From Escherichia virus TH28: a DNA stretch of 55,824 nucleotides. Where the stretch lies: the sequence record MT446402.1; one strand, given 5' to 3'. The stretch's first letter is position 1. The number at the start of each line of letters is the position of its first letter. Shown here piece after piece: positions 44,769 through 52,646 of the stretch. A program made the position numbers and the translations under genes. The notes beneath the pieces were generated by a model. It was not told the origin of the DNA. It was given only the letters and a program-made list of their open reading frames with translations, and did not search any database.

Positions 44769-45826
44769 GCCGCTTCTTTACCGCCCATTGCAGTATTGCC
44801 ACCAAGCATTGCAGTGATGGTTGTTTGGAAAACAGTTTCATGGGTTGAGCCATGATGGACAACTTCTGTAATGAAGTATTTATCTTCCATCGCCCAACGG
44901 AACACGCTCTGGTCTGTGTTAAGAACAACACCCTTTCCAGTTACAGAGGTTACACCATTCGCCAGCAATTGTTCTCCCAACAAAGGAGATACATCAAGAA
45001 TCATTCCTGGCTGATAACTCGCATTCAGAAATGTATTCAATGAATATGTTGCAATGCCAGCAATAGGATTCCCAATAACCTGGTTGGCATCCAGCTTGAT
45101 TGGTTCACGGTCTTTTGACATTCTATCTACAGCATCTTTGTTGCCGTAGGTATCTGGGAAGATTTGAATCTCACCAGTAGTTACAGAGAATAGTAAATTG
45201 TATTCTCCAAGCAGGGTTCGGAACTCTTCCAAGAATGTGTCATGGAATACTCGACCCAACTTCAACTGAGATTTGAATACAGACTCTTCAACACCAAAAG
45301 ATGAAATAGTGGAGAAGCCGTAATCCGCACACATAGAACGAATGGCATCTTCCAACGTTGCACCATTTGGAATATCTTTCATCTGAGTAAATTCAGTAGA
45401 TGCACCATAGGCTTTGGAGATGCAGAACAATTGTGTTACGTGTTCTGGAGGACGTCTGAATCCAACTGCGTTTGTTACTATGCCAGAGAAGATTGTTGGG
45501 AGGATTTGACCAATCTCAATCCTTACTTCCGAATCAGCCTGACTTGGGCTTTGATACTTACTGTGACCAGCATTAACAATGCGCTCGTCTTCATAGTATC
45601 CTGCACGAATTTCAATATACATATCACCATAGGACTTGTCTTGAAGGAATTTAACTTCATCAACGCCCAGGTTGTATAGAGTAATATCGGCAGTATCTGC
45701 GGGCCAACCAACAGTTGACCGGATGGTGAAATCAATCTTGTGCGCTTTAAACACAGACTTGGTTTCTGGGTCATCCTTTCTTGAGACAACTATCTCTATA
45801 CCACGCATCCACGGCATGTTATACAC
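44720..45826 (-). CDS. baseplate hub-like protein
   Basis: 368-aa ORF directly after tape-measure-position gene. Confidence 0.4.
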   Translation of the reverse strand: MYNMPWMRGIEIVVSRKDDPETKSVFKAHKIDFTIRSTVGWPADTADITLYNLGVDEVKFLQDKSYGDMYIEIRAGYYEDERIVNAGHSKYQSPSQADSEVRIEIGQILPTIFSGIVTNAVGFRRPPEHVTQLFCISKAYGASTEFTQMKDIPNGATLEDAIRSMCADYGFSTISSFGVEESVFKSQLKLGRVFHDTFLEEFRTLLGEYNLLFSVTTGEIQIFPDTYGNKDAVDRMSKDREPIKLDANQVIGNPIAGIATYSLNTFLNASYQPGMILDVSPLLGEQLLANGVTSVTGKGVVLNTDQSVFRWAMEDKYFITEVVHHGSTHETVFQTTITAMLGGNTAMGGKEAAWQQAYLNSGMAMESF

Positions 45827-45892
45827 CTATTGAAATTAATACATATTCAAATAATATTAAAGAGGAATGCCGAGACGAATCCCGGCACTTTC

Positions 45893-48800
45893 TTATCTAC
45901 GTTCCATTGCACCATTACCCATGTTGATTGTTTGGGTAACAGTTTGACCGTTCGGAGTTGACACGGTTGCAGACGCTTGCTTGTTGTTCACAGTAGCTTT
46001 GACTTCAACGTTAACTACAGTGGCCTGTGTCTGACCATAAGACAGTCCGTTTCTGGTGAAGCCAGTTGCACCTTCTGCGATAGAATCACCCTGAGAAGCC
46101 CATTCACGGTACTTCTTGACGCGGTTCTGTGCCTGTAGAGGAACAGCATTGAGCCAGTCGGTTCCGTGTTTGTTGATAGCATCATCAACAGTTCCAGCAC
46201 CATCCGTATACGCCGCCATAGCCTTCTCAGCGTCACCATTATAACGCTTGAGCATTGCATCATAGTAGTCACGACCAACGCGAGCACGTTCTTCCAGTGA
46301 GTTATCACGGGCAGGTTTAACGCCAAATCCTGGGTCACGGGAAGTTGAATCAAGAACCTGCATACGACCTTTGGCACCAGTCGGAGATGTAACCACCGAA
46401 CCATCTGCGTTCAAATCGCGGTTCCCTGACTCTTCTCCTGCGATAAAGTCATATACCGTTCTGGTAGTATCAGCTAAACCATTTGACGCTGTACGCGCTA
46501 CTCTGGCCGCATCTCCACCTGCTTCGATAAATGAACTCCCGTATGATATTGCAGCTTGCGGGACTGCGTATCCTGGCAGCACCCCAGCACGCTCCGTCTG
46601 CGCTATTCCTAGCTGTGCAATACCATCGGCATACTGTGAGTTGGCACCACGGCTTACGTTCTCCTGAGCCTCGTTCACGCTGTAATCTGTACGGTCATAG
46701 GCGCGAGCCATGCCATCCAGACCTGCCATCTCCATAGCGCCAGCGATACGAGCCTGACTCCAGCCCCGCTCCTGACCACGTTCACGCATTACCCGCGCTA
46801 AGGCCACAGGGTCGCCCTGTGCCGCACGAATGTCGCCAATAGTGATAAGACCACGGGTTCCCTGAACGATGTTGACAGCGCCGCTAGGGTCGCCATTCAG
46901 GAGGGTGTTATAGGCACTATGTGTGGTTCGATTGAGTCGGCCAGCTTGTTGCTGATTAAGCCCCAACATCTCCAAGCCCTGTGACATGGAAGAATATTCA
47001 TTAGGGTTATTGACACCAGCGTCTAAAGAGTTTCCGTAGAAATCGTTCAGACCTTCGAGCGCCTCGTTACCAATCTGGGTAGCACCGATAGCCATACCCG
47101 CCACACGTCCCCACGGGGTCATCATGAGGGCATTCATTGCACCATTGGATAGTGAGCCTATGCTACCGCCAGCTACGCCAGCAGCCAATGCGCCACCAGC
47201 ACGACCGAAGTCATCTGAGAAGCTGCCACCAGTATTCCAACCACGACCGCCACCGCCACCGGAACCACCCCCACCAATGCCATAACTACTAGCATCGAAG
47301 GTGTCCCAGAAGCCGCCACCACCGCCACGACCACCATTGTCCCCGAAGTCGGCATCTTGTCCACGCAGCTTATTTTCTTCCTGAGCAGCGAGGATACCTT
47401 TCTTGACAGATACTGCCATCAAGTCATTGCCAGTTGTGCTGTCAGAGCCTACGGCAGAGGCTGTGGCTTCCCCAACTCCAGCACTGGTACGGTTGCCTAT
47501 GAATGGGTCATCGGCTGTACCAGCAGCGGCAGAGTAGCCACGCGTTGACTTCTGCTTAACATCCTTCCAGATACCATCGCCAGTCATTGCAGCACGAGCA
47601 CCTTTGATTAAATCATCATTGGACAAGTCTGAATTAGCTTCAACAAACTCTCGACCAGCATTAAGACGACCAATAGTAGAATCAATCTTATCTTTGTTGC
47701 GTTCGTACCATCCCTCGTCCTTCTCAATCCATTCCGATACCGTCTTGTCTCCGATTGTCTGAGAGAACAATGCACGACTACGGCCAGATACAAGCATGCC
47801 AAATTGAAGTTGGTCGAGATAGTCCTTATGCTCACCAGCAGACAGGTTAGAAAACTTCTTAGCCCTTTCAGGGTTCTTGTGTTCCCAAATCGCGTCATCA
47901 CCGATAAGACCATCTGGGGAATACATGAACGACGGATAATTGTCATTTGTTATTGCGCCAGCTTGCTCAATGTCGAATCCAAATTCTTTGGCGACACGGT
48001 TACGAGCAACTTCTTCCGTCCGATGACCTGCTTCGAACATTCGTTGAGTAAATTCACTTGGCCCCTTTCCGCGTTGTAGGCCAATCTTATCAACCATTGC
48101 AGCCCAGGGTCGGTTGTATTCATTGTTACCAAGAAACGAGCCAACAGTGGAACCAGTAATGTCATATTGCTTGCGGAAGTCTAACCATTCCTGAGTGCCC
48201 TGTTCCATGTTGTGATAACGGATTGGGCCTTCTTGCGGAGCTGGCTGTGGAGCAGAGTCCAAATTAGATATAGCAATGCTCTCACGACGAGAGCGAGCAG
48301 AGTTCCAACTTGTTGGAGAATCAAGTTGTGCAATAAACTCTGTTGAAGGACTTAATTCAGTAGGTCCAGTATTTCTTAAACGTTCAGCAGGGTCAAATGT
48401 TCGAGAAACTTCTGCCTCATTATATTGGTGAGCATTCTCAAGAACACCACGAATTGATGTACCAGAGTAACGAGGGTCGTCACCAATATCTTTCTTAAGG
48501 TTATCGTAACCGGAACGAACATCTGCAATGTCTGCATAACGAGAAGCAGAGTCCAGGATTAAATCTCTGTCAGAAGATTGAGTGCGATATGCATTCATTC
48601 CTCTTTCAGCACCACCAGAATAAACCTTTGCCGCAGATTTAACTACGCCAGAAACATCTTGGTAGAGTGTCTTGCTTGCATCAGACCAACCTGGAGAACC
48701 AGACAAGGATGCAGATAGGGAATATTCAGACTTGATACCTCCACCAAATGAACCTATCGGAAGACCAGATGCGTTAAGAGGCTGTCGAGGATGCAGAATA

Positions 48801-49570
48801 TCTCCAACAACAGATTCAGAACCAAGTTGAGGTAATGAATCCATGTATGAAAGTTTTGGCCCCGACTTATTTCCTACATTCATTGCAGATACGGCAGCAA
48901 CTTCTCGGAAGTTTTGCGGCAATTCTGATTCTAAACGTTTGGCTACACGATAAACATCTCGTGCATAGCGGTCTGGGTTGTCGTATTGTTCACGGTCAAC
49001 ATACATGTGAGCAAGATAGCCAAATGACTTGGCAATATCTCCACGGTTTGTGGAATATTCATCCATAATATTACCGGTATAGTGTCCGGCAAGTTCAGGC
49101 ATTATATCTTGATGACCTGCAAGAGTATCTCGCATGTACGAGTTAAGCATTCCCCAATGACCTTCCGGCTTGTTGGGGTTGGCTTTAGGCATGTGCATCC
49201 AAACATCATCAGCGGATACACCAAGTTGTTCCATGTATGCGTGAACTGCTTCTACATGGTGTCCTGGTCCGTTCATTGCAGCATGGAATGTTTCAGTCAG
49301 CCCAGCGCCAGAAATCATCTGTGCTATATGTGCTGCATCTGAAATCATATCAGAAGTCCCGTATGAAGTTTCATCCTCATACATCTGGGAATCTGGTTCG
49401 CCCAAAAGCTGTGAATTTGTTTCCATCCAACCTGACGCAGCACTTGATTCAAGTTGCTGGGCCATATCTCGTTTGCGCATACCAGGATTGAAGGACAGAC
49501 CGTACTGAGCACCCATGCCGATTAGTTCGGCCTCGGATAGCTTCATTAAATCTTTTAAGTTCTTAGCCAT
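45893..49570 (-). CDS. tape-measure-position protein with YqaJ-like nuclease domain, Gly-rich segment and C-terminal lytic transglycosylase domain
   Basis: 1225 aa; residues about 455-600 carry QGTQEW...ITGS, SPDGL, WEHK (PD-(D/E)XK YqaJ pattern); residues 740-810 are Gly-rich; residues about 1040-1140 carry the SLT motif GEESGN...SPTGAKGRMQV. Confidence 0.7.
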   Translation of the reverse strand: MAKNLKDLMKLSEAELIGMGAQYGLSFNPGMRKRDMAQQLESSAASGWMETNSQLLGEPDSQMYEDETSYGTSDMISDAAHIAQMISGAGLTETFHAAMNGPGHHVEAVHAYMEQLGVSADDVWMHMPKANPNKPEGHWGMLNSYMRDTLAGHQDIMPELAGHYTGNIMDEYSTNRGDIAKSFGYLAHMYVDREQYDNPDRYARDVYRVAKRLESELPQNFREVAAVSAMNVGNKSGPKLSYMDSLPQLGSESVVGDILHPRQPLNASGLPIGSFGGGIKSEYSLSASLSGSPGWSDASKTLYQDVSGVVKSAAKVYSGGAERGMNAYRTQSSDRDLILDSASRYADIADVRSGYDNLKKDIGDDPRYSGTSIRGVLENAHQYNEAEVSRTFDPAERLRNTGPTELSPSTEFIAQLDSPTSWNSARSRRESIAISNLDSAPQPAPQEGPIRYHNMEQGTQEWLDFRKQYDITGSTVGSFLGNNEYNRPWAAMVDKIGLQRGKGPSEFTQRMFEAGHRTEEVARNRVAKEFGFDIEQAGAITNDNYPSFMYSPDGLIGDDAIWEHKNPERAKKFSNLSAGEHKDYLDQLQFGMLVSGRSRALFSQTIGDKTVSEWIEKDEGWYERNKDKIDSTIGRLNAGREFVEANSDLSNDDLIKGARAAMTGDGIWKDVKQKSTRGYSAAAGTADDPFIGNRTSAGVGEATASAVGSDSTTGNDLMAVSVKKGILAAQEENKLRGQDADFGDNGGRGGGGGFWDTFDASSYGIGGGGSGGGGGRGWNTGGSFSDDFGRAGGALAAGVAGGSIGSLSNGAMNALMMTPWGRVAGMAIGATQIGNEALEGLNDFYGNSLDAGVNNPNEYSSMSQGLEMLGLNQQQAGRLNRTTHSAYNTLLNGDPSGAVNIVQGTRGLITIGDIRAAQGDPVALARVMRERGQERGWSQARIAGAMEMAGLDGMARAYDRTDYSVNEAQENVSRGANSQYADGIAQLGIAQTERAGVLPGYAVPQAAISYGSSFIEAGGDAARVARTASNGLADTTRTVYDFIAGEESGNRDLNADGSVVTSPTGAKGRMQVLDSTSRDPGFGVKPARDNSLEERARVGRDYYDAMLKRYNGDAEKAMAAYTDGAGTVDDAINKHGTDWLNAVPLQAQNRVKKYREWASQGDSIAEGATGFTRNGLSYGQTQATVVNVEVKATVNNKQASATVSTPNGQTVTQTINMGNGAMERR

Positions 49571-49841
49571 TGTCTTCTTCTTTAGGTTTTAGTTCATTAC
49601 GCAAATCAAGTATTGCGTGGAAAGTTAACAAATCCATAATAGAGTAGGTCCCGTCCGAGAGTTCTTTAAGAGAACAGAGAGAACTGTCCTCTATTACAGG
49701 ACGGTGCAGGAAGTATTTTATTTCCGGGAACTTCTGAGTTAAATCGTTTCCGGACTCGAATTCTTCTGCTCGGCCATTTTGGATGCTTCCACCGCCTCCA
49801 ATTGTCTGCGTTCGTTGAGTTCGAGCCCTTGCTTGAAAAAA
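49563..49841 (-). other. -1 frame extension of tail assembly chaperone (frameshift product)
   Basis: From the slippery heptamer the -1 frame stays open for about 92 codons and stops at 49563-49565, overlapping the next gene's ATG at 49568-49570. Confidence 0.5.
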
Positions 49842-50197
49842 TCAAGGAAGTTCGATTCAAGAACAAATGCAAACACATGGTGCATGAGCATTAAATTGCC
49901 GTTGTACTTCATCTGCATAGTGCGTGGATTAACTTCGACACCATCAATGGTTGCCATACACACTACACGTTTAATTAATTCTGTTACTTCCGTATGAGTT
50001 CCACCCTGCTGCATCAAATGAATAATGTCTGCAAAGTTATATTTGTTCTCAACGAATGGGAATATCGAAATACCGAGTTTCTGAACAAGCTCGACTTGGA
50101 GGTCAAGAGCTTGGCTGGCACCGAGTTGTCGCGTACCAACCAAGACTGTCTCACCAGAGTCGGCTTGTAACTCGCGTTGGCGAAGTTCACAAGCCAT
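49739..50197 (-). CDS. tail assembly chaperone
   Basis: 152-aa ORF between tube and tape-measure-position genes; contains slippery site. Confidence 0.55.
   Translation of the reverse strand: MACELRQRELQADSGETVLVGTRQLGASQALDLQVELVQKLGISIFPFVENKYNFADIIHLMQQGGTHTEVTELIKRVVCMATIDGVEVNPRTMQMKYNGNLMLMHHVFAFVLESNFLDFFKQGLELNERRQLEAVEASKMAEQKNSSPETI
49835..49841 (-). promoter_or_regulatory. -1 ribosomal frameshift slippery heptamer U UUU UUC
   Basis: Minus strand gat-ttt-ttc with zero-frame codons UUU UUC (X XXY YYZ pattern). Confidence 0.5.
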
Positions 50198-50211
50198 GCT
50201 CTTACCTTATA

Positions 50212-50667
50212 TTAAACGCCGATTTCTGGATACTGGCCAGTCACGATGGTGAGGCGTTCTACAAACACAGCCCACATATTCGAAGTGAAGGTTACACCAC
50301 GAACGATTGCTGGCTGTTGCAGAATTGCACCGTTGACACCGTTAACCAGTACGTCACCCATCTTGTCAACCAATTGCAACTGCAAAGGTTCCCAGAGGGA
50401 TTTGTTACCAGACAAACCAGTTGCACGAGTAAGCTGTGCACGTTGGTAAAGGATTTCGTTCCAGTCTGCCGTTTGCAGCAGTGGGAAAGTGATAACCCCA
50501 GACTGGTCAGCAGTGGTTGCTACAGCAAGTTTGCCGTAAGCATCCATAACAGGAACATGCTGTGGCACGTTGTAGCGTGCCGTAATTACAGATTGCCCTG
50601 CCTGAAAACCGTCTACACGAGCACCGTCAATCAGGAGGTCTGTATTATAAAACGAATATTGCTTCAC
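50212..50667 (-). CDS. tail tube protein
   Basis: 151 aa between sheath and chaperone genes. Confidence 0.5.
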   Translation of the reverse strand: MKQYSFYNTDLLIDGARVDGFQAGQSVITARYNVPQHVPVMDAYGKLAVATTADQSGVITFPLLQTADWNEILYQRAQLTRATGLSGNKSLWEPLQLQLVDKMGDVLVNGVNGAILQQPAIVRGVTFTSNMWAVFVERLTIVTGQYPEIGV

Positions 50668-50676
50668 TGTTCACCC

Positions 50677-52125
50677 TTACTGAATGAAGTTGCCAGAGAT
50701 TACAGCACCCTGGATTGCACCGGAACCGATAGCAATAAAGGAAGTACCTTCCCAAATACGTTCACCCTTCTGCGACTGCAAGAGTTCTAACGGAGTAGAA
50801 ATAACTTTGTAGCCTTCTGGATAGAAGACGCCTTCGTTATCATAGCCAGGGGCAATGAGGCCGTTAGTCTTAGCGAGTTCGAGCGCCAGGGTTACTTGCT
50901 GGTTAACCATTGCTACACCAGTGTCCGTCCAAGGAATCTTGGTAGTGGAGGTGTAGAACAAGTTGAACACGTTCAGTCGAACTTTCTGAGTCAGCCATTC
51001 AACACCTTGTACGGAGTCGAACCATGTGCCGTCAGCCATACGACCGTTGTAGAACATTACGTTGCCAGCAACAGAAATGAATGCGTTACCACCACAAGAA
51101 AGCAGCGCACTTACCTGCCCAGAAGACAGGTCAGCAGTGGCGATACCTGGACCTTTCTTGTATGCCAGAATAAGAACAGAGTTTGCAACGTTAAAGTTAA
51201 CAGTTGATGCACGACCCAGGATAGAAATTTCCGGATATTCATCACCATTCGCAGAAGCATCGTAAACACACAGAGTGTTACGCAGGTTCTGGTTCTTAGC
51301 ACGACGGAAGCTGTTATCAGTGCCGTTGATAAGAATGTTCTTGTCGTTATCACCCCAGCCAAATACTTTGCTGGATGCTTCACACCACTTCGCCACAGAC
51401 ATTTGGTTGTCTACTGGAGAGGTTTTGCCACGATACTGGCGGTCAAGGCCCACATAGAAGAAGTTGAATGGAGCATCTGCAATATTAGACAAGTCGGAAG
51501 AAATGGATAGCTCGTTCTTACCAGCAACAATAACTGCGCTGTCAGAAGATTGCAGTTTCAGTACTTCACCAACTTTACCACCAACGTTGCTGATAGTTGC
51601 GTTGATGCCAGTTGCAGAAGTGGTCAGCTTGAACTTGCCAGCTTCCTGAGTAACAGTTACGCCAGCACCAACAGAAGATAGTGCAGTAGTTACTAGAGTT
51701 GCAACTTCTTCGAAGTCAGCAGCAGCAGAGAAATCAATCGGGTCAGTAACATACTGAACACCGCTAACACTTAACTGCATGGTTGCAGCAGTTTCCAGCT
51801 TAATGGTTGCCAATACAGCAGCAGTTGCAGCAGTAACAGTGGCAGGAGTTGCTGGAGTCAAAGTATCGTACTTGATAGCACCAACCAGGAAAGTCTTCGG
51901 AGTTGGCTTCTGCGAGTACCAAGAGGTAGCAGCTTTAGCAATCTCACCACCAGGGAAGTCTGCGAGAACTTCTTTCAAACTGGTATAGGAACGAACCGGA
52001 TATACATCAACGGTCGGTACAAACTCTTTGCTCATAAAGAGCAATGGCCCAAAACCATCGGTCGCAATGGCGTTCGGGGAGATTGCGATATCAACCTGAA
52101 CTAAATCAGAAATTGGGATTGACAT
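50677..52125 (-). CDS. tail sheath protein
   Basis: 482 aa immediately upstream of tube gene; size and position fit Mu/P2-type sheath. Confidence 0.5.
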   Translation of the reverse strand: MSIPISDLVQVDIAISPNAIATDGFGPLLFMSKEFVPTVDVYPVRSYTSLKEVLADFPGGEIAKAATSWYSQKPTPKTFLVGAIKYDTLTPATPATVTAATAAVLATIKLETAATMQLSVSGVQYVTDPIDFSAAADFEEVATLVTTALSSVGAGVTVTQEAGKFKLTTSATGINATISNVGGKVGEVLKLQSSDSAVIVAGKNELSISSDLSNIADAPFNFFYVGLDRQYRGKTSPVDNQMSVAKWCEASSKVFGWGDNDKNILINGTDNSFRRAKNQNLRNTLCVYDASANGDEYPEISILGRASTVNFNVANSVLILAYKKGPGIATADLSSGQVSALLSCGGNAFISVAGNVMFYNGRMADGTWFDSVQGVEWLTQKVRLNVFNLFYTSTTKIPWTDTGVAMVNQQVTLALELAKTNGLIAPGYDNEGVFYPEGYKVISTPLELLQSQKGERIWEGTSFIAIGSGAIQGAVISGNFIQ

Positions 52126-52127
52126 TA

Positions 52128-52646
52128 TTAAACCTTTTTGGTTGTGATAAGTGTATTACCATCATAGAAGTTGCCACCAACATATGCGCCAGACATGACT
52201 CCGATAGGACTCAAATCTTCACGAATAACATTGAATTGCATTTTAACCGCTTGGCGAACTTCCCAATTGGTTTCCATTTGTATGGTGGCAAGATTTAAAG
52301 GTTCTTTACCAAGAGCAGCAAACTTCTCCTGCTTCAATTTGGCTTGAACATCGGGACGGTAAAACGAATTATCAAACTTGATAAATTCATCACCCTCACG
52401 AGAAAACATTATTGCAAATGTCAGAATACGAACACCACGAGTACGGAATATCTCTTCGCCATTAATGGTTACTATTCTGTTCTCGTCAAAACCTGGGTTG
52501 GTGCTTGATAAACATTTGATTGCAGCATACTCACCATGGGGTCGGGGAGCGTTAATCTGCATGTTGTATGTAAATTGTGGGATGCCCACACATACATCTA
52601 CAATCTCTTTCATGGATTGTAGTTCTTCAAGTCTAATATCCATCAC
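52128..52646 (-). CDS. head-tail joining / tail completion protein (copy B)
   Basis: 172 aa; 2 substitutions relative to 57..575. Confidence 0.45.
   Translation of the reverse strand: MMDIRLEELQSMKEIVDVCVGIPQFTYNMQINAPRPHGEYAAIKCLSSTNPGFDENRIVTINGEEIFRTRGVRILTFAIMFSREGDEFIKFDNSFYRPDVQAKLKQEKFAALGKEPLNLATIQMETNWEVRQAVKMQFNVIREDLSPIGVMSGAYVGGNFYDGNTLITTKKV

Follow-up and report, generated by a model that had tools for sequence, protein, structure and literature searches.

Introduction

The -1 frameshift in the tail assembly chaperone gene of phage lambda is of a type conserved in double-stranded DNA (dsDNA) phages, as summarized in the review PMC5009743 (Levin 1993; Xu, Hendrix & Duda 2004, 2013, 2014). 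Two overlapping open reading frames (ORFs) just upstream of the lambda tape-measure gene are linked by a -1 slippery heptamer and give a major short product (gpG) and a minor fusion (gpGT) that share an N-terminal domain (PMC5009743). A conserved GTTTTT -1 frameshift has also been argued for the chaperone locus of myoviruses in the Vandenendeviridae (Pakpunavirus) and Andersonviridae (PMC12846349, 2025), in a paper that mentions the Chaseviridae only for their tail fibres. We found that the lambda layout, with its paired ORFs, its heptamer and its predicted pair of products, recurs in the tail genes of Escherichia virus TH28 (MT446402.1), a Chaseviridae (Carltongylesvirus) coliphage from a group of lytic myoviruses related to phiEcoM-GJ1. 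The element is a U UUU UUC heptamer inside the tail assembly chaperone gene; "the window" below means the whole stretch of DNA analyzed, 55,824 nucleotides (nt).

A sequence-only reading of the window had proposed a -1 frameshift of the lambda G/GT or P2 E/E' type at this position, and every computational test of the frameshift supported it except the search for a stimulator. The frameshift is of a known kind, family-wide and unannotated.

Results

Shift site and overlapping frames

The chaperone gene (49739..50197, minus strand) starts with an ATG at 50197, stops at 49741-49739 and encodes in the zero frame a short product of 152 amino acids (aa), the "G" or TAC-N product. Its codons GAT (49843-41), TTT (49840-38) and TTC (49837-35), followed by AAG, confirmed that T TTT TTC lies in the zero frame at 49835-49841 as claimed, phased as X XXY YYZ. 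This slippery heptamer (49835..49841, minus strand), which covers codons 120-121 (Phe-Phe), is the proposed -1 shift site. In the -1 frame a TGA at 49844-49842 stands directly before it, and the open stretch begins with the heptamer's first base. From there it runs for 92 codons (49841..49566; FFQARAR...KPKEEDNG) to a TAA at 49565-49563, which is the length and the stop first described for it. This -1 extension, the "T" or TAC-C part (49563..49841, minus strand), joined to G residues 1-119 would make a predicted GT fusion of 211 aa. An ORF at 49666..49878 had been set apart from the -1 frame as a +1-frame entry, correctly, as (50197-49878) mod 3 = 1.

The zero-frame stop lies 100 nt past the heptamer start. 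The dual-coding overlap zone so defined (49739..49841, minus strand) is where the shift must fall, and it also encodes the 31-aa tail specific to G (KQGLELNERRQLEAVEASKMAEQKNSSPETI). No other canonical heptamer was found in this zone. At the far end of the extension, the TAA lies within ATGGCTAA (49570-49563), so that the extended ORF and the next gene share 8 nt. The stop is therefore at the start of that gene as proposed, but it does not overlap the ATG itself (49570-49568), which it follows by 2 nt.

TTTTTTC occurred once on the chaperone-coding strand across the whole window. Over about 15,500 codons we counted 32 heptamers of the form XXXYYYZ in frame, half of them (16/32) with an A or U triplet, which gave an expectation of about 0.03-0.07 slippery in-frame heptamers in the 33-codon overlap zone; this single-sequence estimate is suggestive only. 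A control on -1 ORFs that run across other gene stops in the window was uninformative, because many neighbouring genes overlapped in that frame.

Conservation in related phages

The region 45800-52200 had 100% identity with Escherichia viruses TH23 and TH33 and 88-98% identity with Escherichia, Yersinia and Shigella phages in the Chaseviridae, Cleopatravirinae, Carltongylesvirus. To this we added more distant loci: 7 annotated GenBank loci and 27 IMG/VR loci found with an alignment of the chaperone gave 21 distinct sequences, from Carltongylesvirus, Suwonvirus, Loessnervirus, Myducvirus, an Aeromonas phage and metagenomic relatives; the lowest chaperone identities were 32-38%.

TTTTTTC was present at the same place (codon 114-120) in 20 of the 21 distinct loci, and the remaining one, Erwinia phage Faunus, had GTTTTTC. 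The -1 frame was open for 90-104 codons past the heptamer in all 21, through the whole gap between the chaperone stop and the next gene. Comparison with related phages had been named as a check on the frameshift, and homologues lacking the open -1 frame numbered 0 among the 27 IMG/VR and 7 GenBank loci. The comparison of these loci puts the frameshift observation far beyond chance.

Conservation reached the bases of the site itself. Faunus aside, the three zero-frame synonymous positions of the heptamer were invariant across loci. Before the Phe pair stood GAT, GCT or AGT, each with T as its last base; Faunus alone differed (GAG). The Phe codons at the site were always TTT and then TTC, while the third positions of Phe111 and Phe117 varied, and the base after the T run was always C, though the -1-frame residue there was Q, H, R or L. 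The zero-frame stop moved between 37 and 118 nt past the heptamer start among relatives (37 nt in locus L034) with the heptamer fixed. The -1 stop directly upstream in the window and the zero-frame stop of L034 together confine the shift to 37 nt, counted from the heptamer's first base. In a blastn comparison with Erwinia phage Y2, only 49880-49810 matched, with 84.5% identity.

Faunus (L005:1021-1320 / L022) was the sole relative with G TTT TTC, and its overlap zone held no other canonical heptamer. From this variant it seems that A-site tRNA slippage on U UUC may suffice by itself.

The position of the -1 stop inside codons 2-3 of the next gene, as in the window, recurred in most relatives (AATGGCTAA). 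Others had TGATGG or TAATGG at the junction, or a stop a few bases upstream, and among the loci compared the tight stop/start junction is common, not obligatory.

Coding capacity of the -1 frame

We estimated the ratio of nonsynonymous to synonymous substitution rates (dN/dS) over the 57 codons past the chaperone stop, the 168-nt "gap". In the -1 frame it was 0.08-0.13, or inestimable through saturated synonymous sites, compared with 0.8-3.9 in the other two frames, which also contained 3-5 stops. Differences in the -1 frame clustered at third codon positions, with counts such as 12/8/28 over positions 1/2/3. By this measure the -1 frame in the supposed intergenic gap is under purifying selection. 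The conserved peptide motif was YFLHRP..E..LC.L.EL.DGTYS..D...FH.ILDLR, and the C-terminal 50 aa of the extension matched phrog_4364 (E=2e-17).

The first ATG, GTG or TTG of the -1 frame in the window is codon 68, and the motif begins at codon 42. Of the 21 loci, 16, the window among them, had no start codon anywhere from the heptamer to the conserved domain; the other 5 had a single, non-conserved TTG or GTG there. Independent initiation therefore cannot yield the conserved domain.

A fusion query against a database of 5.8 billion proteins returned no in-frame fused homologue among its 26 matches, all of which were 149-158 aa long and contained the G part only. The structure of the T part alone, predicted without an alignment, had a predicted local distance difference test score (pLDDT) of 47 and was unusable. 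The predicted tryptic peptides are YNGNLMLMHHVFAFVLESNFLDFFQAR across the junction of the fusion and YNGNLMLMHHVFAFVLESNFLDFFK for the zero-frame short form.

Chaperone identity and tail-gene order

The naming of 49739..50197 as a tail assembly chaperone gene was borne out by two profile matches and by its place between the sheath and tube genes and the tape-measure position. Residues 23-126 matched positions 8-124 of the 127 in PF21822 (Phage_TAC_15) with 54.1 bits against a gathering cut-off of 22, and the protein matched phrog_11820 with E=3e-58. All 26 database homologues of the chaperone also carried PF21822. A Pfam scan at E<=0.1 returned PF21822 alone, with no match to the lambda gpG or P2 gpE families, and a sequence search of the PDB with the fusion gave a chance match only and no chaperone. 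On these profiles, the element is one that works like lambda gpG and P2 gpE but stands outside both sequence families. The Pfam domain ended at residues 123-126, right at the shift site. The C-terminal helix was predicted to be long (H102-146), and the isoforms would branch in the middle of it. In the most distant relatives the G-specific tail was only about 10-12 residues long.

The tail genes concerned are all on the minus strand, in the order sheath, tube, chaperone, -1 ORF and a 1225-aa gene. The tail sheath gene (52125..50677, minus strand; 482 aa) matched phrog_205 "tail sheath" (E=9e-93) and PF11863, and the tail tube gene (50667..50212, minus strand; 151 aa) matched phrog_280. GenBank names these two genes, directly upstream of the chaperone, "tail sheath" and "tail tube protein". 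The 1225-aa gene at the tape-measure position (49570..45893, minus strand; phrog_19855) is the one whose start holds the stop of the -1 extension. Its product has a YqaJ-like domain (aa 461-597) and an SLT domain (aa 1060-1136), and its orthologue is annotated "tape measure protein" in PYps23T and 4HA13.

The 1225-aa protein was unusual for that position in having a nuclease domain. The YqaJ/RecE-like PD-(D/E)XK exonuclease domain spans aa ~432-640 (PF09588, E=2.9e-11; phrog_434, E=6.5e-21), and the same protein carries the SLT lytic transglycosylase domain at aa ~1060-1136. GenBank names for its orthologues conflict: tape measure, tail fibre, T4 gp5 analogue and virion structural protein.

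Search for RNA stimulators

A downstream stimulatory hairpin or pseudoknot, which the sequence-only reading had suggested looking for, was sought by folding, RNAalifold, covariation and Rfam, and no conserved element was found. The single-sequence fold for the window was no better than those of shuffles (z -0.05 to -0.8), RNAalifold on 19 sequences gave 0 consensus pairs, and an Rfam scan of 49400-50300 at E<=1 gave no match. No upstream Shine-Dalgarno-like (GGAGG-like) motif was seen by eye. The signals of the IS3/dnaX type, a conserved hairpin or pseudoknot 5-9 nt downstream or an upstream Shine-Dalgarno-like sequence, were thus not found.

The folds did contain a candidate long-range stem of 9 base pairs (49752..49828, minus strand), unproven, in which GGGCUCGAA (49828-49820) pairs with UUCGAGUCC (49760-49752). 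It begins after a 6-nt spacer from the heptamer and is part of the minimum-free-energy fold. Folds of each sequence over +1..+50 and +1..+95 also predicted it in 7 close relatives, a Carltongylesvirus-like subset only. Pair counting showed no covariation in this stem, with 314/500 shuffles scoring at least as high.

AAGG, 5-8 nt past the heptamer, was invariant across the family. It was rejected as a Shine-Dalgarno-like stimulator, as it is downstream of the site and double coding accounts for its conservation (Gln/Glu-Gly in frame 0, Arg AGG in -1). The peptide VFAFVLE.NF..FF just upstream of the site was also frozen.

The site may work without an RNA stimulator, or with an unconventional one. 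The bare heptamer, together with an effect of the nascent chain or the local context, would then set the level of slippage, and the two isoforms, branching within the long helix, would have alternative functional C-termini. We regard this as unlikely. Judged from the aligned loci, the flanking conservation is explained more simply by double coding and the chaperone fold.

Annotation of the locus

None of the GenBank/RefSeq records fetched (phiEcoM-GJ1, PM1, Myduc, Y2, Faunus, 2KOFFS and others) marked the frameshift. They showed an "intergenic" gap of about 170 nt after the chaperone, or an arbitrary small hypothetical protein. The small "hypothetical proteins" in the gap at L001:2992-3138, L002:1245-1466, L004:1195-1308 and L007:1252-1410 were all fragments of the -1 extension, with different lengths and starts. 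phrog_4364 ("unknown function") appears to be built from such gap fragments.

A Chaseviridae chaperone locus was also present in GenBank PP952070.1 (1898-2582), "Staphylococcus phage Pel53" (host Staphylococcus hyicus), which matched along the whole query with 71.5% identity, the level also seen for phiEcoM-GJ1. Chaseviridae infect Gammaproteobacteria, so the host label looks doubtful.

Discussion

We infer a ribosomal -1 shift at U UUU UUC (49841-49835), with a probability of roughly 0.88. Most ribosomes would read through the site and make the 152-aa chaperone. A minority would slip by -1 with one tRNA-Phe on UUU in the P site and another on UUC in the A site, and both tRNAs would re-pair as UUU UUC changed to UUU UUU. 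The ribosome would then read CAA GCA AGG... in the -1 frame for 90 more codons, to the TAA in the first codons of the next gene. The 211-aa product would keep the complete chaperone domain (residues 1-121), with a conserved 90-aa C-terminal domain replacing the 31-aa tail. Lambda gpG/gpGT and P2 E/E+E' are the models for their roles: both forms may coat the protein at the tape-measure position, and the extra domain may recruit the tail tube protein. Slippage efficiency would set the proportions of short form and fusion, and both would be absent from the virion, as PMC5009743 describes for the lambda products.

The heptamer is of a kind known to shift in E. coli. In reporter assays, U_UU.U_UU.C fell in the high-efficiency class H_HH.U_UU.Y, with more than 0.1% shifting without a stimulator, and the tetramer U_UU.C was second only to A_AA.G (PMC4066793). 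The same study found that U7 (and A7) runs are avoided in genes, which its authors link to polymerase slippage and indel mutations, and the invariant C at position 7 fits this avoidance (PMC4066793). With a bare U UUU UUC, the Chaseviridae would offer a clean natural experiment on such a site in E. coli.

Several points weigh against a ribosomal shift at this site. The fusion protein in Chaseviridae is a prediction, and no frameshift was mentioned in the Chaseviridae papers found (Myduc, ST32, PP101, PYps phages, Mangalitsa and the profile of the International Committee on Taxonomy of Viruses). The searches gave no conserved RNA stimulator, no Rfam match and, by eye, no upstream Shine-Dalgarno-like sequence. 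The site is 31 codons ahead of the chaperone stop, further upstream than that of lambda, and the G UUU UUC of Faunus would weaken P-site re-pairing.

The main residual rival is transcriptional slippage, in which an RNA polymerase (phage T7-like or host) would add an extra U on the T6 run and the fused mRNA would be translated normally. The added U would give the same protein as the ribosomal shift, and sequence analysis cannot separate the two. Productive transcriptional slippage is usual on runs of 7-9 or more, however, and a T run of only 6 is short for it. In favour of the rival, the invariant element is a homopolymer run, and Chaseviridae encode a T7-like RNA polymerase (PMC6872899 and PMC12842549). 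Yet the conserved unit keeps the X XXY YYZ phase relative to the reading frame in all loci. Its seventh base is always C and never T, even though a synonymous T there would make the run longer, which fits selection that favours a ribosomal site and disfavours slippage by the polymerase. We consider polymerase slippage very unlikely.

Two further accounts seem to us more improbable still. Lambda-type sites are usually nearer the stop, and Phe120 and Phe121 are invariant in the protein, so the shift could be imagined elsewhere in the 100-nt overlap, for example near the chaperone stop, with the heptamer kept only for Phe-Phe. But the zone offers no other canonical heptamer, the varying zero-frame stop leaves a common zone of only 37 nt, and the codons of both Phe, together with the wobble base before them, are frozen in a way that those of Phe111 and Phe117 are not; a shift away from the heptamer is thus hardly credible. 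The downstream ORF could instead be a separate small gene with an internal or non-canonical start, as the 37-73-codon "hypothetical protein" ORFs called in the GenBank gap would have it (phiEcoM-GJ1 gp61, PM1_050, Myduc gp50, 2KOFFS_0042) and as phrog_4364, apparently built from such calls, would too. In the window, however, the conserved domain is already 26 codons along at the first ATG, GTG or TTG, relatives do not share the positions of candidate starts, annotated starts differ by record, and the frame is conserved and open back to the heptamer, the FFQARAR..IGGGG segment included. We give a separate gene next to no chance.

With the ribosomal shift at U UUU UUC as the preferred reading, recognition of the 211-aa fusion would correct one gene model per genome across the Chaseviridae. 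The frameshift also confirms the tape-measure position of the 1225-aa gene and settles its inconsistent naming, for example as virion structural protein, tail fibre or T4 gp5 analogue. The phages that keep the chaperone frameshift thereby gain a family of lytic myoviruses whose RNA polymerase is T7-like. Knowledge of frameshifting or of tail assembly is unchanged by the finding.

Among known systems, lambda differs from the TH28 locus in being a siphovirus whose chaperone belongs to another sequence family. Its slippery site, G GGA AAG, comes only just before the end of G. P2, with its E/E+E' pair in the FETUD tail operon, is like TH28 in having a contractile tail and the gene order sheath, tube, chaperone, tape measure (Christie et al. 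2002, as summarized in PMC3931495). Its -1 shift also takes place on six T, T6G in P2 and T6C here, and its -1 ORF likewise lacks a ribosome-binding site of its own and overlaps the start of the tape-measure gene (PMC3931495). A T7C shift site has been predicted in P2-like Xanthomonas prophages (PMC3931495). There is no detectable sequence relationship between the P2 and TH28 chaperones, and the -1 frame of P2 reaches only 37 nt back into E, whereas the two TH28 frames overlap by 100 nt and the short product retains its own 31-aa tail.

The Vandenendeviridae and Andersonviridae loci resemble this one in other respects. They too belong to lytic myoviruses with a poly-T motif, the argument for their frameshift is likewise an uninterrupted -1 frame across divergent genomes, and their downstream piece is also routinely mis-annotated as a hypothetical protein or as intergenic (PMC12846349). 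They are other virus families, and the motif here is the full heptamer T TTT TTC, while the GTTTTTC of Faunus matches their GTTTTT (PMC12846349).

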